DNA from: a virus
Direction: 5' to 3' (one strand)
DNA length: 52,500 nucleotides
Virus genome (UHGV): UHGV-0197997
Part shown: positions 3 through 51,556 of the stretch, one piece after another
Position numbering within the stretch: position 1 is the stretch's first letter
Layout of the letters: each line of letters starts with the position of its first letter
The notes under the pieces: generated by a model
The model's input: the letters and a program-made list of their open reading frames with translations, nothing else
Told to the model about the DNA's origin: nothing
Database searches by the model: none
Program-made: the position numbers and the translations under genes

Positions 3-1091
3 GTGGAGAACTCGGCGACGAACTATGCACTGAGTGCGCTCGATCAGACCGCCGCGAACTATGTGCCGTCGGGCCTGACTGTATCCGCGCCAGCTGCCGG
101 GTGGTGTACCCTCACGGAAAGCACCATGAATGAAGCGCATGTGCTCATGGATAACCAGAGCACGATTGATCCGACCCTGTATAACGTGGTGTCCCTGTTT
201 GCTAAAGCCGGGTCAGCACAATACCTGCAGATTCAGGTTTTAGGTGCCGGGGCTCAGGCGTTCGCTAACTTTGACGTACGCAATCAGAAGGTAACCAAAA
301 TGGGCCGTCTTGCCGTCAGGGCCAACATCTTCCAGGGTTTCAATGAGAGCGCCCGGTGTGTGTTGTGTGTGAAAGGAAGCGGGAATACTGTCGGCTCGGT
401 TAAATACAGCCTGATTAACGATCCGCTGGCAGAGCCTGATGTCGCCTACGTCGGAACCGGGCGGACCATGCAGGTCAGTCTGATGCAGATCGAGAAGAAT
501 ACCTATCACGCCAGCTCCGCGTTCTTTCCTGATGGCGCGGTAGGTGGTACTGCCAGCGCGAACCGCCAGGCAGACGCCGCTCGTCTGCTGGATATTCCTG
601 CGGGCGTGAAATCAAACTTCTCTGTGTTTGTGAAGGGGATAATGACCCCGGCGGCACTCGGCAATGCTGGCGGCAATATCCTGTTCTCTCTGCTGAATAA
701 CACGGCGCTGAAATACATTGGTTTCGGTCTGGGCGCGGCTGACAGCTCCAATGCGTTCCAGTCCCTGGCTGCGCATAACATTAACGCCGGCAGCACGCTG
801 GCGGGCATTCCGTTCACCGGAAAAATGTTCTCTCAGTACGGTGAATATGCGCTGATGATCACCCTGAACAACGGGGTGCTGAAAGTATACAGCGGCATGA
901 CCGATAGCCCGGAAACTCTGCTGACCGGATGTCCGGCATTTGATTACGTCATGCTGGGCAGAAACAGCTCGGTTTCTGGGTCTACAGTGTCAAACTCTGG
1001 CTTCTGGGGTGGCTGGCTTCAGAAGGCCGTACTGTTCGATTCGGCGCTGAGTGACGCGGATATGATTGTTCAGTTTGATTTGCTCGCATAA
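3..1091 (+). CDS. Tail fiber-like protein, 5'-truncated at window edge
   Basis: ORF open to the window start; Gly/Ser/Thr/Ala/Asn-rich fibre-like composition; convergent with the minus-strand tail genes and sharing a hairpin terminator. Confidence 0.4.
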   Translation: MENSATNYALSALDQTAANYVPSGLTVSAPAAGWCTLTESTMNEAHVLMDNQSTIDPTLYNVVSLFAKAGSAQYLQIQVLGAGAQAFANFDVRNQKVTKMGRLAVRANIFQGFNESARCVLCVKGSGNTVGSVKYSLINDPLAEPDVAYVGTGRTMQVSLMQIEKNTYHASSAFFPDGAVGGTASANRQADAARLLDIPAGVKSNFSVFVKGIMTPAALGNAGGNILFSLLNNTALKYIGFGLGAADSSNAFQSLAAHNINAGSTLAGIPFTGKMFSQYGEYALMITLNNGVLKVYSGMTDSPETLLTGCPAFDYVMLGRNSSVSGSTVSNSGFWGGWLQKAVLFDSALSDADMIVQFDLLA

Positions 1092-1107
1092 AAGCATCTT
1101 GTTAGTA

Positions 1108-1140
1108 CAAAATAAAATCCCCCGGATAAGGCCGGGGGAA
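1108..1140. terminator. Bidirectional hairpin terminator between convergent tail-fiber genes
   Basis: Stem CCCCCGG (1119-1125) / CCGGGGG (1132-1138) with 6-nt loop; A-rich run 1110-1118 gives a T-run for the minus strand. Confidence 0.6.
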
Positions 1141-1218
1141 ACTAATTAATAACTTTAATTCCGCTTGTATATGAGTCTGTGTTGCATTCTTTGGCTTCAG
1201 GATTCAGGGCAATTTGAG

Positions 1219-4200
1219 TTACGCGCCTGACACCCTGCCTTTTGCAATCTGGTGTACAAAATAAGATGACAACATCTCAATCATCACTTTGTTATGACTT
1301 GAGATAGTCGTTGGTATGCCAGACGCCAGGCGTGGGGAGAAACCATAGAAACGTCCGGACGAATACGGATTGGTAAGATAATCTTTTTCGTAGGCCTGAA
1401 CACAAGCCAGCAGAGCATTTCCGGTTGATACCCGTCGGACCAGCATCATCGTCAATGCAACGCTAACCGGAGTCGAAATGATCCCCCTTCGGCTTTCAGA
1501 AATAATGAAATCAATCCCCCGCAACCTGCCATCACCGCACAATCCCTGAAGTCCATAGTTGACGTTGTTAAACAGGGGCGTTCCGCCGAGTAACTCCGTC
1601 ATCATGAGGTATTCAGGCGCGAGGTCCATATCGTAGTTGTACCACCGGCTCCTTGCCAGGGAGGTGCTGACTGGCATCGAATCCAGCATGCTTGGCAGAT
1701 ATCGACCAATGGTGCTGCTATTGGTCAGATTCGTCATCACCGTGTTATAGCATGACTGGTAAGCTCCGCCAGTATCCATCCCGGCGTGTATTGCCAGCGC
1801 GACAAGCAGCATGCCGTAGATATTAATATTCACGGCGGCACTGACTGAAGATGGCGTATAGGTGTTCGGCACACCTCCTTTTGCTGCGACTGCTGTAACC
1901 ATTGCGTCAGCCCACGACTTAATATAAGGCTGCATTGCCGCCATTGTTGCAGTGTCACCCAAAAACTCAGCCGCACGATATACAGAAACACATGGCTTGA
2001 GTACCGGAGTGACCAAATCAGCAACATTAATAACTCCCTCCAGATAGCGGGCTCCGATATTAGTGCTTCGCCAGTTATCATCCCAGCACCGTTTAAACCT
2101 GGCCCATACTGCCGCAATATTAGGTGAGGGCTTTTGCAGTTCACGATACGCAAGATAACCCCACGGGGTATTAATATCATATGGCCCGGCATTCGAATCC
2201 ATACCGCCTATTCCAGCTGAGTCTCCATTCATCCAGAAGTCAGCAACCCCATCAAGCAATACTCTCAGCTTATTCTCAGCTTCTTTTACTGCAAAGTTAG
2301 GAAGCCTCCCGCCACGCGCAAAACCCACAGGCCGATTGTAAACTTTCTTCGCAAGCGTTAACGGGTCTGTTTCAGTTTCACTGGCATTCAGCCAGGCTTC
2401 AATGGTCCATGTCCAGTTTTTCTCAACCGGCCAGTTAAGAAATGAATAATCCGACAGGGATGAATATTGCCAGCCTGTGGTTACGCCCAGCGTAAACTCT
2501 GACGCGGCATTCGTCATCGTGATGCCTGTCGGTCTGGTTGGGCCCGCAGAGGTTCCATCCCTGTGAATATCCCCGTTTACAATGGTCGGCACATAGGAAA
2601 ACCTGCCGTTACCGGCTGTATTTCCGGTTGTGATTGCTGCAGCAGCGGTACCGGAATAGGCTGGAGTCGTCCCGTTTTTATAAATAACATTAGAGCTAAT
2701 AGTTGCTCCACACATCTTACCAACAGGAATATCCTCCAGGGCAGTCACCATGTTTTTCACAACGACGATTCCGTTTTTAAAAATGCGGAAGCGAGTGGTG
2801 GCCTTAATAATGCCTGCCGAATAAACGGCACTGGCGGCATTGTAGCCTGTGCGCTCAATCTCGGTAAAAAGCGGGCCGGTATTGATGACCTTCAGCGTAA
2901 CGTTGTAGGTGAAATACTCGATAACCTGAGCGCCTGCAGTCACGTAGCGATGCTGCGGGCTCAGCGTGCATCTGATACGGTTGATATCATCATTTTTAGC
3001 AGCATCAATGGATGTGAGGCCATAGGCTCCACCGGCAAAACCAAAGCGGTAATACAAATCACCCACTTTAATGTTATAACGCTTCAGGGCATCAGAAGGC
3101 GCGTAGTACTCCAGGCCTTCGGAATAGATCGTATCATCATAGCGATAACCAAAAACATCCACGTTATAATATTTTTTTTGTCCCGCCGATACGGAATCGA
3201 CGATCCACACGGCCCCCGTTTTGAATGAGCCATCAGGGTGATAACCTTCAGTTGACTGAAAGCGAAGGTTCACGAAATCATCTGCAGAAAATTGCGCATC
3301 AAACACGTTTCCTTCAGCGTCAGATACCTTAATGCAGTTGTGACCAAACACCATTCCTGCAGGGAAACTCACTTTTAACTCGACAGGACCACTGTAGTCG
3401 GTAGCCATGTCATTTACTACATCAGCAACAAAACGGGTAAAAGGGTTATTGTCAGTGTTCTGCCTGGAAATTCCGTTGTAATAAAGAATATCTGCGTCAA
3501 TGGTCAGATAATCGTTTACAGAAATTGTCGCAGGTTCGGCGCTTAATTTGGCAAGGTAAGCCGTTTTATATACTGATACATCGGTACTTCTGTAATAAAG
3601 ATGTACATCATCAAATGAGGCATAGAAATAGTTTTTAACGCCATCATCAGTAATGCTAAACCCTGCCCCCGTAATATCAGAATAGGGGAATGTTAGCTGG
3701 ATTGAGGTTGAGCCGTCAGGGTTAGAGTAAAGCGTGCAATATTTACCATCTGAGCCATACGCACCGGTGTTACCGGAAATAAAATCACCGGACTTGTCGA
3801 TAACGGCATAGGCAGTGATCGATTTATAGGTATTGATAAGCGGAACATTGGTAAATATTGCTCGGGCAACTGAATTTGTCTCATCAAACAAAACTGTTGC
3901 TGGTCTTAACTTTGCCAGTTGAACAGAGTGATATGGAGAGTTAAGTACATTATCAGCAAAGTATTCAGCCGGAAGTAGTTCTGCAATTACTGTTGTGACA
4001 CCGCTTTGCAGATGGGTTACTTTTAGTGTGTTTTTCTGGTTTCGGGCGTCAGAAGTTTCAGCAGCTGACAGGGAGTTAATGCGTAAAACAGATTCTTTCC
4101 CGACATTGACTACAGTGTCACCAGGCATTGAGATACTGGTAAACTTAGTTAGCGGAAGTGATGAGATTTCGCTAAGCAAAACATTAATGGTGCCAATTTT

Positions 4201-4572
4201 ATCATTTATGTATTCATATAAAGCACTTACTTTTGCATCAACCCCCGCACCTGAAGGCATTTTCCTTCCAGTTTCCTCAAGTGTACCGCCGTTATTGATC
4301 ACTTCGACGGCAAGAGCACTATCATCCGGGCTGCGGTAATACGTTGTCGAGCCAACAGGGATATTCACGATATCTGCCTGCGCATCTGCTAACGTCATGT
4401 ATTGCTTGCTGAGCGGGATCAGATTTTGATGGATGCCACGCCAGGTGTAAAGCAATTCGCCTGCGCGGTCAGGGAAGACCAGCGCCAGGCTATTCAGCAG
4501 GTTATCCAGGCGAGTGGCGTTATCGAGCAGCACCGCGGGCGAAGTGCTCCCCAGCTCCGGGTTAAAGGCCAT
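1219..4572 (-). CDS. Tail fiber / tailspike (putative receptor-binding protein), 1117 aa
   Basis: Last and largest gene of the tail module, directly downstream of the tip protein; assignment by size and position only. Confidence 0.55.
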   Translation of the reverse strand: MAFNPELGSTSPAVLLDNATRLDNLLNSLALVFPDRAGELLYTWRGIHQNLIPLSKQYMTLADAQADIVNIPVGSTTYYRSPDDSALAVEVINNGGTLEETGRKMPSGAGVDAKVSALYEYINDKIGTINVLLSEISSLPLTKFTSISMPGDTVVNVGKESVLRINSLSAAETSDARNQKNTLKVTHLQSGVTTVIAELLPAEYFADNVLNSPYHSVQLAKLRPATVLFDETNSVARAIFTNVPLINTYKSITAYAVIDKSGDFISGNTGAYGSDGKYCTLYSNPDGSTSIQLTFPYSDITGAGFSITDDGVKNYFYASFDDVHLYYRSTDVSVYKTAYLAKLSAEPATISVNDYLTIDADILYYNGISRQNTDNNPFTRFVADVVNDMATDYSGPVELKVSFPAGMVFGHNCIKVSDAEGNVFDAQFSADDFVNLRFQSTEGYHPDGSFKTGAVWIVDSVSAGQKKYYNVDVFGYRYDDTIYSEGLEYYAPSDALKRYNIKVGDLYYRFGFAGGAYGLTSIDAAKNDDINRIRCTLSPQHRYVTAGAQVIEYFTYNVTLKVINTGPLFTEIERTGYNAASAVYSAGIIKATTRFRIFKNGIVVVKNMVTALEDIPVGKMCGATISSNVIYKNGTTPAYSGTAAAAITTGNTAGNGRFSYVPTIVNGDIHRDGTSAGPTRPTGITMTNAASEFTLGVTTGWQYSSLSDYSFLNWPVEKNWTWTIEAWLNASETETDPLTLAKKVYNRPVGFARGGRLPNFAVKEAENKLRVLLDGVADFWMNGDSAGIGGMDSNAGPYDINTPWGYLAYRELQKPSPNIAAVWARFKRCWDDNWRSTNIGARYLEGVINVADLVTPVLKPCVSVYRAAEFLGDTATMAAMQPYIKSWADAMVTAVAAKGGVPNTYTPSSVSAAVNINIYGMLLVALAIHAGMDTGGAYQSCYNTVMTNLTNSSTIGRYLPSMLDSMPVSTSLARSRWYNYDMDLAPEYLMMTELLGGTPLFNNVNYGLQGLCGDGRLRGIDFIISESRRGIISTPVSVALTMMLVRRVSTGNALLACVQAYEKDYLTNPYSSGRFYGFSPRLASGIPTTISSHNKVMIEMLSSYFVHQIAKGRVSGA

Positions 4573-4649
4573 GTTTTTTGCTCCAAAAAAGGTGTTCGCC
4601 TAAACGAGGGTTTGTGCGAAAGAAATGTTGAAAGGGGTTTTAGTGGGTG

Positions 4650-7600
4650 TTACGCGACGTTGCCGGGGTATGTGGCGTTGTCGTAGTCGTAAAATTCAGC
4701 GCGGTATTGCCGAGCGGTGACTTCGCATGTCCCGTCATCCTGCGGGACGACTTCGGACACAATGGCGTCGTAGAGGTCACTCTCTGAGCTGCTGAAAATT
4801 AACCGGGGCGGTTCGATTATCGGATCGTCCATCAGGATATCGGCAAACTCGGATTGATACGGAACGGATACCTGATAGTTGTCTCCCGTCGGTGATGCCT
4901 CAAACAGCCGTGACGCCGTACCATCCTGATACCGTAGAAAGATTCGCGGATTTGCAAACGTCCAGTCCAGCGGCTCCGATACGTCGAATATTGTCACCCC
5001 ACCAGCAGTAGCCATTGACTCAATCAAACACGAAATGGTGTTACTGCCGGGAATGTCATCCGTCAGCACAATACGATCCCCGACGTTGTAGCAGAGCGCG
5101 TCCAGCTCCGTCGTCGTTTTATGCGTCATGCGCTGCAGCTGGTATTTTCGCAATCTGCGCATACCAATCTGGTACGCGTGATCGGGATTGCCTACCCCAT
5201 CAGCCCGATATGCCTCTATTTTCTGAGGTGTCGGGTTGTCCGGTGTCCGGCATTGCACCGTTTCTTCTGCCCACGTCGTGCCGTTGATATAGGTGACATC
5301 AACACCATCGTAATCATCGTCGGTCACCGTGCTGAAATCGGTCTGCAGCTCGGACACCATCTCATGAGGGGTGATAGCCCCGGTCCAGGGTTTAACCCCT
5401 TCCCGGCCAACTGACGCAACAGATTGGGTATTCAGCAGAAAATAACTCTTACCTGCGGCAGCGATTTTTTGCAGCATTTCCAGTGCGGAGATACTGTCTC
5501 CCGTAAAATAATCGAAGGTTTCGCCGTTCGGGGTCCAGTACGCCTGCTCCAGCGCATCAATCGCTACCGTGTCCATCTCCATATCCAGAGAGCGACCGAC
5601 GTGGTAGAGCGCGCCAGAAATACTACGGGCAACGCCAGAATCATAAATCCGCGTGGCTACAACGTTTACGCGGCGGTCAGACTGCGCCGCCAATTTGCCG
5701 CCCGTCTCAACCGTAACGCCCATCAGGGTGACGCCAGCATAGGATGATGGCCGAGCCAGCAGCCGACCGCGTAGCGCCTGCCAGTACATCGAGTCGCGTG
5801 CGTTGTTCGACCCCTGCTCGTTCAGACGCCTACAGCGAACTTCGACGAGACCAGGTGAAACCAGATTGAATCGCTCCGTGAAGCCGAGGCCGTTAACGTT
5901 CTTCAGCGCATAGACGCCCTGCTTGCTCGTCCAGCCAGCACCCGATCCATATACACGGTACTGAATTTCCCATTCGCAATGGCGAATTCTTTTTTTGCCT
6001 TTGCTGTCAAACCCACAAATGCCAGACGGAAACGAGAAATTCACCTCGAAAGCGTCCACTACTTCATTTTCCGGACAGACAAGGAAAGGTCCCATCCAGG
6101 TGTTGTTGTCGCTGATCCCCGTAGCCTGGTAGTCAATCATCGTGCGCGGTGAGAATCCAGGCCAGGAAGGATCAACCGCCCCATCAATGACTCGCTGGAC
6201 CATTGCTGTAGTGCCGTCTGCATCAGCAATGCGATATTCGTTACCACGATGTGCCAGAGAAAGCCGCTGCGAGCCTTCCGGGATGCCCGAGAATGCAGCC
6301 CCGGTGACACTGCCATACGCCAGCGTGACGTTTGCAGTAATTGCAGGGCTCCCACCACTCGATGCTGTCCCGAGAGTAAACTCAGGGTCATCGCCGAAAA
6401 CTGATACAGGGAAAATTGAATCGATATCTCCGCCTTTCCACGGGCTAGAAATTTCCACGATCCGCACAACTCCGCCGTCGTCATGGGCAATCAATCCAGA
6501 CCCCGTAAGCCTGGAGTTAATTGCATCCAGCAACCCTGACATTGTGATGTAGTTATCCACAAGCTGAACGAAATAGTAGTTGCCCTGCCAGAACAGAGAG
6601 AAGTTTTCATTATTTACTGAAAAATCGTACGTGGTTGGTGCAGCATTTCCACGCACCGCAGCAGCGGTTCCCCCGACACCAGGCACTGCATCCTGTTTTG
6701 GGGTATAGGTAGCAATGAACAGATCATACTGGGCGCCGTTAATTTCTAGCGTGACCGGCATTCCTGGGCTCGGGTTAATCTCAGCGATAAGATCATTTGT
6801 CAGTACGCTATAACCCGCCGACGTCGATACCTGGAAATTAGCAGGCGCGACAATTGTCACCAGCGCGCCAGTAACCCAGGATTCTGGCAGCGAGTTCCCC
6901 TCATCATCGTCAACGCTGGAATCGACCAACCCCGAAAACGTTACGGAGGGCCCTGAAACCGTCATGCTGTCGGCAGTGATATCGGTAGAATCTGGCGAAG
7001 TCTGGGCCATATCAAGACCGCTTCCGCTGGAAGTGCCACCGACCTCTGTCGAGTTGAACCAGTTTTCACTACGCCGATCACCTGAGACATCCGAACCAGG
7101 TGCATAAACGTTGTGACTAAACGAATCCCCTAACGCCAAAATTGGAGTTGAGCCCACCCTAATATCGCCATTCGTAAACGCGAAGTTCCCTTTCCCCAGG
7201 CAAACCATCATTTCGACCGTCATTAGCGTCGGATCATCAGGGTTAAAACGGGTCACGGGTTGCACAACATAATCGGGATAGATACGGCAGCGGCCAAACA
7301 CCTCACGAATGGGATCGCCCAGCTTAGCCTGGTTCGCTTTAGCCGGGTTTAAATCCAGCCCTAAACCATTTGAGGACGAGTACCCGCCTTTATCCATGTT
7401 CGACATGGTGATCAGCACATAAACAGCAGAGGCTGCAGCAATAGCCGCTGCCGCCCATGCCGCGATTGTCGTCGCCGTCACACCCTCACCCGGGATCGGG
7501 TAGGCTTTTACGTCGCTCTCAGCCCTGATAAAACATAAAGGCCATTCTGCCGGCGGGACCGGTTTACCGTTAACCTCGAAGGAGACACGCTGCGCCATCT

Positions 7601-24793: not shown

Positions 24794-25423
24794 TTACCCC
24801 ACCAATACCGATTTTGCCTTCAGGAAACGGGCACGCCGATCATCAACTCCGTTCTGCCCGCCGTTGATAATCAGGGTGACGCGGACCAGGTCACCGGGAT
24901 ATTTCAGGCAGCCCTTACTGGCATAAAACCAGGCCGCACTTCGTGCCGCGTATTCGTCCTGCGCCAGTAGTTCAGGCTGGACCACCAGATCGACCTTCAA
25001 CCCGGTCCCGCAATCCCGGTAATTCGTCAGTCCGGTGATATGGATAAGACCACGGCCACGATATAGCCAGCCATCACCAGGGCCTTTGTTGCCATTCCTT
25101 TTGTTGTAGGCAAGGTTGGCGATCGCCCGCTGGCGCGCAAGCGGTAGTGACGGCTCACCCTGCCGGCGTCCGAGGGAATTGGCCTGGTCCTGCGTCAGTC
25201 GCCCGGCGCGCACAAATCCCGCCAGCCCGGTAACGCTGTAATTGAAACTCTCCACCAGTTGGGTAAACCCGACGCTTTCATGCCCGACCTGAGCAATAAA
25301 CATCGCCTGGTCGACAGGCGCCGTAATGCCGAATTCTTTCATTGCTGCAGTGATATGCGGATACCAGCGCGCAGCTAAGCCGGCGCTGATACCAGCCGCC
25401 TGCTGAAATTGTGATTGATTCAT
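24794..25423 (-). CDS. Endolysin, glycoside hydrolase family 19-like
   Basis: GH19-type motifs (QVGHESVGF, GRGLIHITG); follows holin. Confidence 0.8.
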   Translation of the reverse strand: MNQSQFQQAAGISAGLAARWYPHITAAMKEFGITAPVDQAMFIAQVGHESVGFTQLVESFNYSVTGLAGFVRAGRLTQDQANSLGRRQGEPSLPLARQRAIANLAYNKRNGNKGPGDGWLYRGRGLIHITGLTNYRDCGTGLKVDLVVQPELLAQDEYAARSAAWFYASKGCLKYPGDLVRVTLIINGGQNGVDDRRARFLKAKSVLVG

Positions 25424-25704
25424 TAGTGCCTCAGTGTATCGACCAGGCGCGCCACGTTACCCCGTGCCCACAGCACGGCGGCGCAGATAAGGATGTTTGC
25501 CAGTACCACCAGCCAGTGGGACTGTACGTAAAGACCGAAGATAAACTGGAAGGGAATGCTCGCGTAAATCAGCACAAGCACATAAGCAAGTACGGAAATT
25601 CCTGGGCGATGCCGGGAACCGCGACGTTGATAAAACATCAACGCACAGACGATAACGACACAAATAACAGCATTGGCCAGTGCAGCAGGGTCATTTATTA
25701 CCAC
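25423..25704 (-). CDS. Holin (small 3-TM membrane protein)
   Basis: 93 aa with three hydrophobic helices and charged C-terminus; overlaps upstream membrane ORF. Confidence 0.6.
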   Translation of the reverse strand: MVINDPAALANAVICVVIVCALMFYQRRGSRHRPGISVLAYVLVLIYASIPFQFIFGLYVQSHWLVVLANILICAAVLWARGNVARLVDTLRH

Positions 25705-26086
25705 TCGAACCTCCTCCCCTAAATCGGGAAAGTATTCCGAACAGGCTGCTCAGATCCTGGCTGTTGATGAAAGTCAGGACCCTGATAGTGATAGCTGATG
25801 CCACCACTGCACCGAGCGCATCAAGCGGGCGGTCTGTATAGCCTGTCCAGGCAGTAAATTTTGAGCCTAATAGTCCAGCAGCCAGAACACCGACAATAAA
25901 CGATGTCATGAAGTAGGCTATCTGCCTCCCTCGTGTCAGGTTCGCGGTCGTTGCCACATAAAACACCGCACCACCAAAGGCTCCAAACACCACACCAAAA
26001 TCGGTATGAGTAATAACGCCATAAGCGACAGAACCAATTAACCCGCCTCCAAAAATAAGGCCGGTACCAGTTAAAGGATCGGACAT
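25691..26086 (-). CDS. Holin-like Gly-rich membrane protein (holin/antiholin candidate)
   Basis: 131 aa, multiple Gly-rich hydrophobic helices; first gene of lysis cassette. Confidence 0.5.
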   Translation of the reverse strand: MSDPLTGTGLIFGGGLIGSVAYGVITHTDFGVVFGAFGGAVFYVATTANLTRGRQIAYFMTSFIVGVLAAGLLGSKFTAWTGYTDRPLDALGAVVASAITIRVLTFINSQDLSSLFGILSRFRGGGSSGNK

Positions 26087-26258: not shown

Positions 26259-26319
26259 ATTGATAAGATGTTTTCACGGTAAGGCAACTGGCCAACCGAT
26301 AACCAACGAGGGTTTCGAA

Positions 26320-26478
26320 ATGTTCAACTCAATCAGCGATGCAAAAACTTTTCTGTTCAATCACGGTATGATCGATTTCATCGACCTTGACCGCGAGGCC
26401 GAAATTGTCGAAGACCTGTATCGCAATGCAACTGACGCCGACAGCGCTGAAGCCATCATCAACAGCTACGTCATTTAA
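26320..26478 (+). CDS. Small acidic protein, 52 aa
   Basis: ATG preceded by GAGGG; Asp/Glu-rich; the track's upstream TTG start is less likely. Confidence 0.45.
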   Translation: MFNSISDAKTFLFNHGMIDFIDLDREAEIVEDLYRNATDADSAEAIINSYVI

Positions 26479-26522: not shown

Positions 26523-26915
26523 ATGAACAATCTGGAAAAATTACGCGCTGTTGGGGAAGCGGTATATGGGGATAAGTGGCAGTCTGCACTTTCACGCGCC
26601 CTCGGTATTTCTGACCGTACCGTGAGGAATTTCGTGTCTGGGAAGTCCCAACCGGAAAACTTATCAAATCGCTTACTCGAGGCGATGGAGCTTGAAATGG
26701 GGAAAATCAAAGCGGCCATCGACATCATCAATAGCGACAAGTTGCGTGGTGACGACATCTCTATTGAGATGATTACTCAAATTGCAGACCGCTACGAATA
26801 CTGTGATGAACAAGATCGTAAGGCTGCGATAGACGCAATGAACAATGCAGTTTACGAGGAAACATTCCTCTCCGACCTGGAAGCAATAGCGATCAGACTC
26901 GCAATACGCCATTAA
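26523..26915 (+). CDS. HTH DNA-binding protein
   Basis: HTH-like segment QSALSRALGISDRTVRNFVSG; follows small acidic ORF; hairpin 26920-26943 after stop. Confidence 0.55.
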   Translation: MNNLEKLRAVGEAVYGDKWQSALSRALGISDRTVRNFVSGKSQPENLSNRLLEAMELEMGKIKAAIDIINSDKLRGDDISIEMITQIADRYEYCDEQDRKAAIDAMNNAVYEETFLSDLEAIAIRLAIRH

Positions 26916-26930
26916 TGTTAAGCCCACGCG

Positions 26931-27161
26931 TTAACGTGGGCTTAAATTGGGGTGTGGTGCTGAGTGCCTCTCAGTAAGCCTTTGGTCAGCAACCATGACT
27001 TGCGGTCCGAGTGAATCATAAGGATTCCATTTAAGCTGTTTCCGCCCCTCCGCACAGGGGGATTCACCACGCCAATAATTTATAGCTACTTCATTCCCAT
27101 CGTCAATAGCAAGCACTCTGTCAAAGGCACCCGAAGATGCCTTTTGCACAGTGTTATTCAC
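26931..27161 (-). CDS. Hypothetical protein, 76 aa
   Basis: ORF downstream of small membrane ORF; stop lies in hairpin loop; weak support. Confidence 0.3.
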   Translation of the reverse strand: MNNTVQKASSGAFDRVLAIDDGNEVAINYWRGESPCAEGRKQLKWNPYDSLGPQVMVADQRLTERHSAPHPNLSPR

Positions 27162-27309
27162 TGGACTTAATTAACGGCCAGAGTAAAGCAATTACTCCGG
27201 CCACCAGCACGCCATCTGCCAGGATGGACATCATTTTGCTGGTGAAGTCGATGGCAACCACCAAGAACAAAAGCACCCCGGCAGCGCCCCAGCGAAGTTT
27301 GCCAATCAC
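27154..27309 (-). CDS. Small two-helix membrane protein, 51 aa
   Basis: GTG start overlapping TerB-like stop as GTGA; hydrophobic segments GAAGVLLFLVVAI and GVLVAGVIALLW. Confidence 0.35.
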   Translation of the reverse strand: MIGKLRWGAAGVLLFLVVAIDFTSKMMSILADGVLVAGVIALLWPLIKSSE

Positions 27310-27728
27310 AGATACTGATCCAGAGGAAGCTGCAGAGCCTGGGAGATTTTCTTCAGAGCCACCTCTTCTTCTTCACCAATACCATCGTTATCTGCAATAT
27401 CCAGACAGAGGCAGAGAACATCCACTGCATCAGAGGTACCGGCAACATCAGCCAGTTGACGAATAGCTTCGGCGTTAGCTGAACGCGGGGAAGCTTCGTA
27501 ACGAGCGCGAATGTTCGAACTCATCTGGGCAATTTCACCAGCGAACGGGGCAAATGCCGGCAGCGCGGAGATAGTTTTCTCCAGTACCGCAATCTCTTTT
27601 GCATCACAGGTGCCATCCGCATACGCAATCGAGTATGCGCCCCAGACAGTTGCCTCTACCGCATCGCGGTTCTCCATCTTCTTAACTTCTGCTACTGCCT
27701 TACGTGCTTTTTTACCGAATCCAAACAT
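27306..27728 (-). CDS. TerB-like (tellurite-resistance TerB family) domain protein
   Basis: Two ADG-type motifs (IAYADGTCDAKE and LDIADNDGIGEEEE). Confidence 0.55.
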   Translation of the reverse strand: MFGFGKKARKAVAEVKKMENRDAVEATVWGAYSIAYADGTCDAKEIAVLEKTISALPAFAPFAGEIAQMSSNIRARYEASPRSANAEAIRQLADVAGTSDAVDVLCLCLDIADNDGIGEEEEVALKKISQALQLPLDQYL

Positions 27729-27861
27729 AGTGACTTTCCTTTTAGCGGGTGAGCCAGCGCTCAGGAATGATCAGCCCACAGAGACAGTCACACTGACTAT
27801 TCCCTATGGCTCACCCCTGAAAGGCTCTGTGGTTAAATAACGCCGAGCGTGGCGTAGATAC

Positions 27862-27883
27862 GAAAAAGGCCCGCGAATGCGAG
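27862..27883 (-). terminator. Rho-independent terminator downstream of phage tRNA
   Basis: Minus-strand GCTCGC-ATTC-GCGGGC followed by CTTTTT. Confidence 0.55.
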
Positions 27884-28038
27884 CCTGGTGGATCCGCTTA
27901 CTGATACGGAGCGGCCAGCCTCAGCTGCCGCAGATTCAAATTGTGGCCCTGCTTTGGAGTCACTTTGCGAGCAGCTGGGACATGTATGTTTCGCATCGTG
28001 ATTGGGATTCGCTTCAGGCGCTGGCCCCACTACCATTC

Positions 28039-28114
28039 TGGTGCTGGTTGACGGAATCGAACCACCGACATCCTACTTACAAGGCAGGTGCTCTACCTAC
28101 TGAGCTAAACCAGC
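28039..28114 (-). tRNA. tRNA-Thr (anticodon UGU), phage-encoded
   Basis: Hand-folded cloverleaf: acceptor GCTGGTT/AACCAGC, D-arm GCTC-AGTAGGTA-GAGC, anticodon loop CTTGTAA, T-loop TTCGATT, encoded CCA; T-stem needs two wobble pairs; 5' end overlaps methyltransferase stop by 10 nt. Confidence 0.55.
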
Positions 28115-29154
28115 AAATTGCGCATTTCACTGACCGTCTGTTCAAACCGCTCGGTTTCCAGTTCAACGCCGATTCCACTCCGCCCGAGTAGAGCAGCTTG
28201 CTTTAGTGTGGAACCAGAACCAGCAAAGAAATCAGCTACGACCTCCCCCGGCCGACTGCTTGCAGTAATGATCTGCTGGAGCATATCGGCAGGTTTTTCG
28301 CATGGGTGCTTACCTGGGTAGAACTGAACAGGCTTATGAGTCCACACGTCGGTATACGGCACCGAGACGGAAACACTAAACGGCCTCCGCAGGCAGTGAT
28401 ACTCCTGCTGAAGTTCGCAGTATTTCCGGTTAAGAGATTGCCATGTTGCGACAAGCTGGTGATGGGGCTTAGCAAGTTCGTTTCGTGAGTGTTTATCTCT
28501 GGCAATTTGCTGGAACAACGTCTGCAATTTCAGGTAATCGGCTTCGTTCGGTAACTGCCACTGGCTAAGACCGAACCAGTGAGAAACCATGTTTTTCTTA
28601 CCTGTGGCAACTGTAATTTCTGCTGACGTTACTCCAAGAGATTCTCTGGCTTCCCGGAAATAGGAAATCAGTGGAGTCATGACATGCTGCTTGAGTTCAT
28701 TGCTCTTAGCAGCAAACCCATCATCTTTCGGATTATATGGCCCTTGATAATGATCGGCGAAAATGATGCGCTCCGTCGCAGGGAAATATGAGCGCAGGCT
28801 CTCTTTGCTGCATCCGTTCCAGCGCCCGGAAGGTTTTGCCCAGATAATATGGTTAAGCAGGTTAAAACGCTCGCGGACCAGTATCTCAATGTCCGCCGCC
28901 AGCCGGTGCCCGCAGAAAAGATACATGCTGCCCGAAGGTTTCAAAACCCGCCAGAAGTGGGCCAGACAACTATCGAGCCATCGCAAATAGTCATCATCCC
29001 CATTCCATTGATTGTCCCAACCGTTCGGCTTCACCTTAAAGTAAGGCGGGTCAGTAACGATCAAGTCGATGGAGTTATCTGGAAGCGATGGAAGAAATTG
29101 CAGGCAGTCAGCATTGATTAACTCAATACTGGATATTTTTACAGTATTTTTCAT
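28105..29154 (-). CDS. DNA methyltransferase, beta-class (N6-adenine or N4-cytosine), orphan
   Basis: DPPY motif (LIVTDPPYF) N-terminal to SAM motif DFFAGSGST; no adjacent restriction gene. Confidence 0.8.
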   Translation of the reverse strand: MKNTVKISSIELINADCLQFLPSLPDNSIDLIVTDPPYFKVKPNGWDNQWNGDDDYLRWLDSCLAHFWRVLKPSGSMYLFCGHRLAADIEILVRERFNLLNHIIWAKPSGRWNGCSKESLRSYFPATERIIFADHYQGPYNPKDDGFAAKSNELKQHVMTPLISYFREARESLGVTSAEITVATGKKNMVSHWFGLSQWQLPNEADYLKLQTLFQQIARDKHSRNELAKPHHQLVATWQSLNRKYCELQQEYHCLRRPFSVSVSVPYTDVWTHKPVQFYPGKHPCEKPADMLQQIITASSRPGEVVADFFAGSGSTLKQAALLGRSGIGVELETERFEQTVSEMRNLLV

Positions 29155-30101: not shown

Positions 30102-30127
30102 TAAAAAAACCCGCACATTGGCGGGTT
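30102..30127 (-). terminator. tR'-like terminator downstream of Q
   Basis: Minus-strand hairpin ACCCGC-loop-GCGGGT followed by TTTTTTT. Confidence 0.65.
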
Positions 30128-30139
30128 AATCAACGTTGA

Positions 30140-30225
30140 ACATACAAAGCCCATCGTTATAAAAACAATACCCAATAATTTTGAATATTGCAAGTATCTT
30201 GCTGCTATTTTTCATTAAAATGTAG
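30140..30225 (-). promoter_or_regulatory. Putative late promoter (pR'-like) and Q utilisation region
   Basis: AT-rich segment between Q stop and tR'-like terminator with TTGCAA ... TATTGT candidate hexamers; exact -35/-10 not resolved. Confidence 0.3.
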
Positions 30226-30984
30226 CTATCGTGTCACTTCCTTCAGTTTCTGCTCAGCGAAGGTCTCCTCTTGCCAGCATTTTGTAACCAGAATATTGAT
30301 CACCTCGGCATATCCGCTATACCACTGATAATTGGTCATATCAGGTACCAGCCGTATTACTCGATCTTTTACCAGTGTCGTAGGCAAACGGCTGTAACCC
30401 TTGCCATTACACCGTCCACATAGTTTTTGCACAGGTACTTTATGCAACTCAGTACGTTTTTTATCGAGTACGAGGCCGCGTCCACGGCAGTCCCTGCACG
30501 CTGTACTGATCCAGCCCTTCCCTGCGCAATGACTGCATGTTGACTCAACCTCTTCAGGTTTAATCGTAGGTGGGATGCCTTTCACTCCAGGGTGTTTAAC
30601 AACGTCCTTTACCTCCCGAATGACTCGCTGCCCATTGCATTGTGGGCATGTGCTCTTGCTGGCAGCTGAACGCGCATAATCATTGAAAGCAAAAGTTGCT
30701 AAGCAAGAAGCCATTTCAATACGAATACTTTCGGAAAGTTTGGACATTACAGGGTTCTTTAATGTCATCGCGTAATTGGTTAGTTGCTCGATAGCCGGCT
30801 CGGGATCCTGAATACCCATTTTTGCGAGAAACAAATTGAAGCCAAATCGAGCCTGGGCAGACGCCATACCTTGTGCTGCCATAACATCCGTAATCGTTAG
30901 TGAAGTGCCCCCAGTAGCCGGAGTTTCATCATTAAGCTTTGGTGACTTTGGGGAATAAAATTTCGGTAATGATTCAAGTTTCAT
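30226..30984 (-). CDS. Q: Late antiterminator Q (Cys-rich zinc-binding type)
   Basis: Start MKLESLPKFYSPKSP with SD GGAG; Cys-rich CPQC...CSHC...CRDC...CGRC; upstream of late promoter/terminator. Confidence 0.65.
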   Translation of the reverse strand: MKLESLPKFYSPKSPKLNDETPATGGTSLTITDVMAAQGMASAQARFGFNLFLAKMGIQDPEPAIEQLTNYAMTLKNPVMSKLSESIRIEMASCLATFAFNDYARSAASKSTCPQCNGQRVIREVKDVVKHPGVKGIPPTIKPEEVESTCSHCAGKGWISTACRDCRGRGLVLDKKRTELHKVPVQKLCGRCNGKGYSRLPTTLVKDRVIRLVPDMTNYQWYSGYAEVINILVTKCWQEETFAEQKLKEVTR

Positions 30985-31002
30985 GTTAAGCACTCCATAC
31001 AC

Positions 31003-49769: not shown

Positions 49770-51083
49770 TTATTCAAATTCATCCAGCGTCCCGTTAACT
49801 TCTCCTTGTTCTACAGACCCCAGACCTAATCTACCAATTAATACAGGGCATTTCATTGTTATAGAAACACTCATATCTCTCCCAGGGACTCCAGCCTCTT
49901 TATAATGTTCTCCGCTTGCATTAGCAGAAAGCTCCGCATAAAATCCGCTATCAAATCTATAATTTTCTAGTGTGATATCCTCTACCGAATCAAAAATTGT
50001 ATCGGATATCGCAATCGCTCCTGATACTCCATCACCATCAAAAATATCGTTGGGGTTATTTTCAAAAGATTCTTTGCATATTTCTGCCAAGCTGTCTCCT
50101 GATATTAATCTAAAAGGAGTATCTTCAAATAACATATCAAGATGACTGAAAATGAAATCAGCTGTAAAATCTTCATTATCCGAATTTTCATCTAACACTA
50201 TCTGGTGCAGTTCCTTTGCAAGTTCTTCATCATAATATATATACTCCACCTTCCCTAAAGTTTCATTATTGAAATTTTTATCGTTAAGTAGTGAATCAAA
50301 ATCGGCATAACCAAACAGTACTGAAACAATTGAACTTAAGGATTTAATAGAAATATATACATCATCATCCTTAAAGCTATCTGCTACTATTTGCATAAGA
50401 AAAAACGCAGATGGGAATCTATTAGAGGCAAGAGTGGCTCTTACTTTAGCACCCTCACTCTCAAATCGCAGCATTTCTAATTCTGTTTTCTTCTCTTTTT
50501 TAACAAGTTCCAGCTTTGATATTCTTTCATTATTTTCTGCTTCTTGCGTTTTAAACAGCTGCTCTTGAGTTTTAAGTGTCGACTCTGCCTTTTTAGCCTC
50601 TAAACGAGAAGTTCTCAGTGTCATATGGTCTAATATCAAATTGCGTTTATCTATATCATGTTGGACTAATTGCTCCAAAAATTTTTTATTAGGATTAGCT
50701 TTAAGCTTTTCCATATTCAACTTTTTCTGATGATCAATTTTTATCAACTCTTCCGAAATTGCTTGTTTATGAAGCTTCTCCTTAGCCCAGTGTTGTAGAA
50801 ATTTAATAAATAATGAAAACCAAGGAAAAAGGAAAAGATAAAAAGATGCAATAAGTAATGGGATAACAAAAAGTTGATTCCAACCAATCAATGGAGTTTT
50901 TTCTAAATAATTAGTAAAACCACTTACCCGTTCAGCTACCTTACCTTCTCCCCAGAAAAGTAATGCAAGTTGATTCCAATTACATACTAACCAAGAACAT
51001 ATAAAAGTACCAACGAAGGGATCATTGATTCTTGTTCTTGCATTTCCTGCTATTGAAGAGAAGAATTCTTCTAAAAATTTCAT
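49770..51083 (-). CDS. AT-rich cargo protein: N-terminal membrane helices, central Lys/Glu-rich coiled coil, acidic C-terminal domain
   Basis: Located between int and attR core; visibly low GC relative to the phage backbone; hydrophobic segments LFVIPLLIASFYLFLFPWFSLFI; start taken at MKFLEEFF. Confidence 0.55.
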   Translation of the reverse strand: MKFLEEFFSSIAGNARTRINDPFVGTFICSWLVCNWNQLALLFWGEGKVAERVSGFTNYLEKTPLIGWNQLFVIPLLIASFYLFLFPWFSLFIKFLQHWAKEKLHKQAISEELIKIDHQKKLNMEKLKANPNKKFLEQLVQHDIDKRNLILDHMTLRTSRLEAKKAESTLKTQEQLFKTQEAENNERISKLELVKKEKKTELEMLRFESEGAKVRATLASNRFPSAFFLMQIVADSFKDDDVYISIKSLSSIVSVLFGYADFDSLLNDKNFNNETLGKVEYIYYDEELAKELHQIVLDENSDNEDFTADFIFSHLDMLFEDTPFRLISGDSLAEICKESFENNPNDIFDGDGVSGAIAISDTIFDSVEDITLENYRFDSGFYAELSANASGEHYKEAGVPGRDMSVSITMKCPVLIGRLGLGSVEQGEVNGTLDEFE

Positions 51084-51556
51084 TTTTCTATCGTTAACCA
51101 AGGCTAATTTACCATCAATTTAACAGCATATACTGTAAAACCGCAATAGAATAACCCGTTGTCTATACAACATACTTGTTGTCAATGGGGACTATACTGC
51201 TCCAATCCACAGAGTACTATCCGAAGACACAAGTGTTCAAAAACCTTTCTATTCAACTCATATGCTTTTAGTCAGTTCGAATGAGTTGTAGCTTGGAATG
51301 CTTCACTCGATCATGTTAGGCCGCTAGGAAATCGAGCAGAACAAACAATCAACAAAAATGTTTGTCCGATATAATCCACTGTGCTGAAAAGGTTATGACC
51401 AGACTTAATAAATTAATCCAAATGGCATGGGGAGAAACTACCCCCTAACTCATTGATGTATATAGAGCATATTTTGCTAAAAAAGCACTGTTTGTTTATA
51501 CATACAAACATCCCTCACCACCAGCAATGGCGCGGCTTACAGCGGTTTATAAGCGG

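Follow-up and report, generated by a model that had tools for sequence, protein, structure and literature searches.

What is a TerB-domain protein doing in the late region of a prophage, and why does a small hydrophobic reading frame begin exactly where it ends? The question is raised by a locus within a 52,500-nt stretch of viral DNA (UHGV-0197997; the whole stretch is referred to here as the window), which the initial annotation had read as a membrane-associated stress or defence module carried as cargo and composed of a 140-aa TerB-like protein, a 51-codon ORF and possibly a further ORF of 76 codons, all three on the minus strand (Table 1). On balance, we take the locus to be the tciA-tciB module first named in bacteriophage P1, here residing within the late operon of a lambda-like prophage, and we are highly confident of the identity of its parts. 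The locus is neither a ter operon nor a holin, and it corresponds to no recognised defence system. Both proteins belong to families that are already known, and the exact TerB protein is present in many public genomes (an identical copy was found in 147 blocks of a public collection) in which both genes are annotated; the whole locus is already catalogued, through the P1 tciA/tciB family, Pfam TerB and DUF3927, and Rfam STnc100.

The window is a lambdoid prophage, with an integrase and a tRNA-Pro at one end and terminase, head and tail genes farther along. Downstream of the Q gene and the tR' terminator, the order on the same strand is a small ORF, a 110-aa ORF, a DNA methyltransferase, tRNA-Thr, a terminator-like hairpin, a conserved 135-nt leader, tciA-tciB, a second hairpin and STnc100; next come a convergent plus-strand HTH gene, two holin-family genes and an endolysin. 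The gene order of the window recurs in six public loci with an identical TerB protein. At the prophage edge, between integrase and tRNA-Pro, lies an orphan gene for a 443-aa N/D/K-rich protein (49770-51101, minus strand) that has no Pfam or PADLOC match; a search of 185,579 species-representative genomes gave one relative, at 62%, in Pantoea sp. The sequence flanking the prophage is not that of E. coli.

Table 1. Positions in the window of tciA, tciB and the elements around them, in the direction of late transcription.
Feature	Position	Strand	Basis
Lambda-type Q gene	31002..30226	-	PF03589, 142.5 bits
Lambda-type late promoter pR' and tR' terminator, directly after Q	30108..30200	-	Sequence reading; terminator scan
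DNA methyltransferase	29154..28105	-	
tRNA-Thr	28114..28039	-	
Intrinsic-terminator-like hairpin between tRNA-Thr and tciA leader	27867..27886	-	Terminator scan
Conserved tciA 5' leader, ~135 nt	27729..27866	-	Identity across related loci
tciA-type TerB-domain protein, 140 aa	27728..27306	-	ATG start, AGGAAAG Shine-Dalgarno; Pfam TerB; PHROG 632
tciB, DUF3927 small hydrophobic protein, 51 aa	27309..27154	-	GTG start; Pfam DUF3927; PHROG 1470
76-aa ORF, judged non-coding	27161..26931	-	No family match; stops in homologues
Conserved imperfect hairpin	27111..27153	-	RNAalifold; single-sequence fold
Sigma-70-like promoter TTGACG-18 nt-TAAATT	27077..27106	-	Promoter scan; hexamers kept in homologous loci
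STnc100-family prophage sRNA gene	26915..27101	-	Rfam RF02076
Two holin-family genes	26086..25423	-	

The assignment of the 140-aa protein to the TerB domain, which had been made from its motifs, was borne out by the profile search set beforehand as its check: it scores 30.5 bits against Pfam TerB (PF05099; gathering cut-off 24.4), matches phrog_632 ('tellurite resistance') from end to end (E 2e-60) and is 81% identical to TciA of bacteriophage P1. The two ADG-type motifs that had been pointed out are indeed present, as the acidic stretches YADGTCDAKE (residues 36-45) and ADNDGIGEEEE (112-122); the internal repeat is by itself not significant, with 27 of 500 shuffles scoring equally well. Residues 1-20 are basic (+4) and strongly conserved, and the globular part is acidic (-11). 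A phmmer search of the protein against all PDB sequences, which presumably included the NMR structure of Klebsiella TerB (2JXU), returned nothing meaningful, so the relationship to the canonical TerB of ter operons is at the level of the domain only, and a comparison of folds was required. The AlphaFold2 model, computed from 28 homologues (pLDDT 87.7, pTM 0.83), begins with a disordered N-terminus followed by six helices, and by fold comparison the modelled structure is TerB-like and all-alpha. A BFVD fold search gave four good viral matches, every one of them unnamed, and offered no functional lead. A distant TerB homologue in phage Pollock aligns with positions 3-108 of the 118 in the Pfam TerB profile.

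The 51-codon ORF, initially described as unannotated, turns out to have both a family and a name. It scores 54.3 bits against Pfam DUF3927 (PF13064; cut-off 25), matches phrog_1470, 'TciB-like' (E 1.6e-22), and is 45% identical to P1 TciB; NCBI RefSeq labels its homologues 'DUF3927 family protein' in Klebsiella, Enterobacter, Leclercia, Citrobacter and E. coli, and one homologue cluster spans at least 1000 contigs at NCBI. NCBIfam gave no matches for TerB, TciB or the 76-aa ORF. The two hydrophobic helices that had been ascribed to the small protein are supported in part: there are two hydrophobic segments (about residues 7-20 and 26-47, with DFTSK between them), whereas AlphaFold2, given TciB alone, returns one continuous 49-residue helix and no hairpin. 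A two-helix topology is plausible. The motifs DFT(S), DG and WP are invariant in the alignments, and the protein ends in a short KSSE. The codon-level test of this small ORF came out in its favour because it is under strong purifying selection, with dN/dS of 0.02-0.15 over 44 distinct 51-codon alleles whose synonymous divergence from the window is 0.5-1.5.

The tciA stop and the tciB start overlap as GTGA (27309..27306), an arrangement already noted initially and read directly in the sequence, and since the start of tciB overlaps the stop of tciA the second gene is expected to be co-translated with the first. A scan of IMG/VR gave 397 viral contigs with a TerB relative, from which 80 loci were retrieved for analysis of the pair. 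In all 80, tciB follows TerB directly; 76 have the 4-nt overlap, and 63 read GTGA, so the tight coupling to a small hydrophobic partner extends to the relatives. Judged from gene sequence, tciA-tciB is a conserved, co-translated unit under purifying selection.

The pair is also found far beyond the lambdoid phages. TerB relatives were found in 92 records of the phage collection, and TciB relatives in 56. TciB had been missed by tblastn in the Erwinia jumbo phage Asesino, Pseudomonas phage nickie and Pantoea phage LIET2; when we inspected these by hand, the small ORFs that abut or overlap TerB could be aligned with TciB (26-35% identity, with the D..S / DG / WP..K pattern kept). The N4-like phage Pollock has the same TerB-TciB pair, with a TciB identity of 69%. 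The pair occurs in temperate phages (lambdoid, P1, SSU5-like) as well as in virulent ones (N4-like/Schitoviridae, jumbo, nickie-like). Several long or short forms that might have served as Rosetta-stone evidence in the guise of natural TerB-TciB fusions, among them P0117 (196 aa) and P0133, were rejected, as they resemble frameshifts, deletions or wrong starts; folding of the P0117 fusion from a block-diagonal alignment was dropped when MAFFT placed the TciB rows at the N-terminus.

Phage 434 and its relatives encode a TciB homologue without TerB, behind a polytopic membrane protein, so TciB is not strictly dependent on TerB. In the phage 434 region retrieved (2612-3844), the neighbours of the homologue are membrane proteins of 247 aa (polytopic) and 62 aa, from which it appears that DUF3927 can partner other membrane proteins; gp68, encoded upstream of the phage 434 TciB, showed no similarity when the TerB alignment was compared with it as a profile. 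In the N4-like Vibrio phage BUCT194 (retrieved region 1-1874), the order is TerB, TerC/Alx, TerB and then an unrelated 83-aa ORF, and TerB there adjoins the TerC membrane protein, not TciB.

The closest known system is tciA-tciB-tciC of P1 (PHROG 632 and 1470), where the pair has been annotated since the genome paper (Lobocka et al. 2004 annotation). Beyond the identities given above, the two share the order of the genes, the overlap of stop and start, and a neighbourhood that runs from a DNA methyltransferase through tRNA-Thr to tciA and tciB. Two differences stand out: the window has no tciC homologue and carries STnc100 instead, and its module lies in a lambdoid Q-dependent late operon, whereas that of P1 lies in the C1-repressed ban operon, beside dmt and tRNA-Thr. 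The P1 region retrieved (913-5430) reads dmt, tRNA-Asn/Thr, plp/upl, tciABC, tRNA-Ile; tRNA genes also flank TerB-TciB in Asesino and nickie. In Pollock, the pair is found among the early genes.

The placement of the locus in the late region, also proposed initially, is borne out by the lambda-type Q, pR' and tR' upstream and the holins downstream; tciAB lies ~2.4 kb from pR'/tR'. The promoter region after Q closely resembles the pR' promoter of lambda, and carries the ACGATGGG pause motif in a …aaaattattgggTATTGT…ACGATGGG… arrangement. The tR' terminator found by the terminator scan (AACCCGC-caaugu-GCGGGUU followed by UUUUU, 30127..30108) lies ~60-70 nt downstream of the pR' region. As read from these elements, pR' is the transcriptional entry point for everything up to the lysis genes, and with a strong tR' just behind it a short constitutive pR'-tR' RNA is predicted. 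Since tciAB lies behind tR', its expression should depend on Q; the constitutive pR' together with read-through of tR' could give low expression of tciAB in lysogens.

The terminator-like hairpin immediately before the tciA leader has the form AGGCUCGC-auuc-GCGGGCCU followed by UUUUU. Between it and the tciA ATG, a consensus scan, too coarse to be sure of picking up a weak lysogenic promoter, detected no promoter-like site. The leader is 86-98% identical in 66 of 80 related loci and has no match in Rfam. It folds with a long-range stem, GGUGAGCCA...UGGCUCACC (consensus fold -40 kcal/mol), and shows little covariation, the sequences being too alike to support or reject the structure. A GUGACU in the leader is complementary to an AGUCAC located between the Shine-Dalgarno sequence and the ATG of tciA. 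In most related loci the distance from the end of Q to tciA is 285 nt, with the conserved leader immediately behind pR'-tR', which makes tciA the first late ORF in those loci.

Because the 76-codon frame is open and overlaps the end of tciB by 8 nt, and because a third small gene follows tciB in both P1 and Pollock, one might regard it as a real protein gene, the third of the module and the counterpart of P1 tciC; over residues 3-40 it is 68% identical in some Klebsiella phages. We consider this highly improbable, and judge that the 76-aa ORF is not a gene and that the third element is the gene for the STnc100 sRNA. The ORF matches nothing in Pfam, PHROG or NCBIfam and has no similarity to P1 TciC or Pollock gp29. 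It can be aligned over residues 3-40 only, and in some phages only, and in each of the 12 homologous sequence types that can be aligned the frame is interrupted by stops. None of the six public loci with an identical TerB protein has it called; the genes called there are TerB, the convergent 130-aa gene and, in four of the six, DUF3927. DNA homology 3' of tciB is patchy (~60 nt in most loci and ~130 nt in a subset), and the conserved stretch of the ORF is accounted for by a covarying RNA hairpin, a promoter and the 5' part of STnc100.

The hairpin, CACUGUGCAAAAGGCAUC-uucg-GGUGCCUUUGACAGAGUG, lies directly 3' of the tciB stop. RNAalifold, run on 23 distinct sequences, gives it 15 pairs, of which three apical ones have 10-12 double compensatory changes each; it is also found in the single-sequence fold, and is probably a 3' end, processing or stabilising element of the tciAB message. 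The STnc100 match is full length (model positions 1-206; 72.3 bits against a gathering score of 47) and covers 74% of the 76-aa ORF. Its 3' end is a 12-bp hairpin (26917-26945), the region has a fold z-score of -3.46, and STnc100 follows tciB in 14 of 17 related loci sampled. The position of the TTGACG-18-TAAATT site suggests that it could drive STnc100 independently. This arrangement has a precedent: sRNAs of the STnc100/PasD type adjoin the holin/lysozyme operon, and TerB is a conserved neighbour of the prophage Pas sRNAs (Zhu, Shabalina & Storz 2026 preprint). The sRNA of the window resembles these in its full-length Rfam match and in its site near the holin/lysozyme operon and TerB; a convergent HTH gene between sRNA and holin is a feature of the window, and there is otherwise no notable difference.

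That gene belongs to a plus-strand insertion running against late transcription between STnc100 and the holin, composed of a 130-aa ORF (26523..26915) with weak HTH_3 / YdaS-like similarity and a small ORF upstream of it (26260..26478). The hairpin at 26917-26945, terminator-like in both directions, is common to the plus-strand ORFs and the sRNA. All six loci that encode an identical TerB protein have the insertion, which may be cargo expressed in the lysogen.

Could tciAB itself be such cargo? The initial annotation had proposed a stress or defence cargo for the TerB gene and its membrane partner, and a lysogenic-conversion module, expressed in the lysogen and guarding the host against phages, pore-forming colicins or tellurite and oxidative stress, would be comparable to the Phi/PacB/Te phenotypes of the ter operon or to defence systems that contain TerB. 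The accessory part of that proposal stands. P1 tciA, tciB and tciC are non-essential by CRISPRi and dispensable for plaque formation (PMC10695390), the tci operon is variably present in P1-like elements (PMC9603915), and cargo is classically found at such a site, between Q and the lysis genes. TerB-like proteins do occur in the defence systems Shango, Bunzi and Dionysus, in the last with transmembrane and pore-forming partners, and an 'amphitropic, membrane surveillance' idea has been put forward for them (bioRxiv 10.1101/2025.09.30.679545); phage Ter components have been proposed to counter superinfection (PMC7824862). The stress or defence part fares less well. PADLOC-DB v2, which includes Shango and Bunzi (Dionysus post-dates the library), gave no match at E <= 0.01 for TerB, TciB or the 76-aa ORF. 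Like Shango SngA, Bunzi BnzA and Dionysus DinB, TciA is a TerB-like protein combined with a membrane protein, but tciAB has no helicase/ATPase or pore-forming-toxin partners, and it is encoded by phages, lytic ones included, whereas those systems are in host defence islands.

The comparison with the ter operon (terZABCDE(F)) is similarly divided. The Pfam domain, the TerB-like all-helical fold and the two acidic DG-type motifs are common to both; however, the partner in the window is the 51-aa DUF3927 protein and not TerC, and in the six loci with an identical TerB protein no terC, terD, terE, terZ or other Ter-family Pfam gene lies within 6 kb. We consider it unlikely that tciAB confers tellurite resistance on the lysogen. 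The presence of the pair in strictly lytic phages and in lytic-phase operons, such as the C1-repressed early operon of P1, argues against protective cargo expressed from the lysogen more generally. With no PADLOC match, no ter partners, no promoter of its own between the upstream terminator and the tciA ATG, and a presence in obligately lytic phages, a role as defence or stress cargo for the lysogen is less likely than one as a membrane unit for lytic growth, and we regard the former as unlikely.

The neighbourhood in lambdoid phages brings up a role in the timing of lysis, in which TciB would be holin- or antiholin-like and TciA would modulate holin triggering. Of the 80 related loci, 52 have a Phage_holin_8 gene at a distance of 0.7-2 kb downstream of tciA; the late genes often begin with tciAB, and TciB has its two hydrophobic segments within 51 residues. 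However, TciB matches no holin family in Pfam or the PHROGs, its only matches being DUF3927 and phrog_1470, and it has no charged C-terminal tail of the kind that holins usually carry. Two holin-family genes are already present in the window: these overlap in tandem, encode Phage_holin_8 (131 aa) and Phage_holin_3_7 (93 aa), and are followed by a glycoside hydrolase 19 endolysin. Lysis genes do not adjoin the pair in P1, Pollock, nickie or the jumbo Erwinia phages. A lysis-timing role is thus suggested solely by the proximity of holins in lambdoid phages, a proximity absent elsewhere, and appears decidedly improbable.

Our preferred reading is that TciA and TciB form a membrane unit of the phage. 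TciA is a soluble TerB-fold protein translationally coupled to the 51-aa hydrophobic TciB, which would insert into the inner membrane and there either tether TciA or be controlled by it. Candidate contacts for this putative interaction are the conserved basic N-terminal tail of TciA and the invariant acidic residues D21 and D32 of TciB. Such tethering would mirror the TerB of ter operons, which, according to literature cited in one preprint, is amphitropic and works with the membrane protein TerC (bioRxiv 10.1101/2025.09.30.679545); in other systems, too, TerB has been described as an amphitropic, membrane-linked module (bioRxiv 10.1101/2025.09.30.679545; PMC7824862). TciAB would serve the phage at the cytoplasmic membrane while it grows lytically. 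Four observations place it in the lytic phase: the lambda-like pR'/tR' after Q, the place of tciA as first ORF behind pR'-tR' in most related loci, the leader that carries no promoter-like site, and the presence of the pair in Schitoviridae and jumbo lytic phages. The most likely role would be to buffer or monitor the integrity of the membrane against superinfecting phages, pore-forming colicins or abortive-infection effectors. By analogy with these systems, we tentatively suggest that TciAB may help the phage-producing cell to withstand or sense insults directed at its membrane.

As named families with a long-annotated pairing, the two genes of the locus add little in themselves. The locus is instructive in another respect, in that a plausible 76-codon ORF is really a structured RNA region made up of a hairpin, a promoter and the STnc100 sRNA; it serves as a reminder that the region immediately ahead of lambdoid lysis cassettes is prone to over-called genes in ORF lists. 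The 'tellurite resistance' label on the phage TerB gene has been inherited by homology and is probably misleading, because the gene stands without ter partners and is accompanied by a dedicated 51-aa membrane protein across very different phages, obligately lytic ones included. The interest that remains lies in the pair itself, which is very widespread, from lambdoid prophages to jumbo phages. A speculative possibility is that TerB-TciB is a widespread, self-contained phage 'membrane module' for lytic growth, one that would exclude superinfecting phages or neutralise colicins and abortive-infection effectors that depolarise the membrane. If so, a counter-defence or exclusion function would stand behind the 'tellurite resistance' label.
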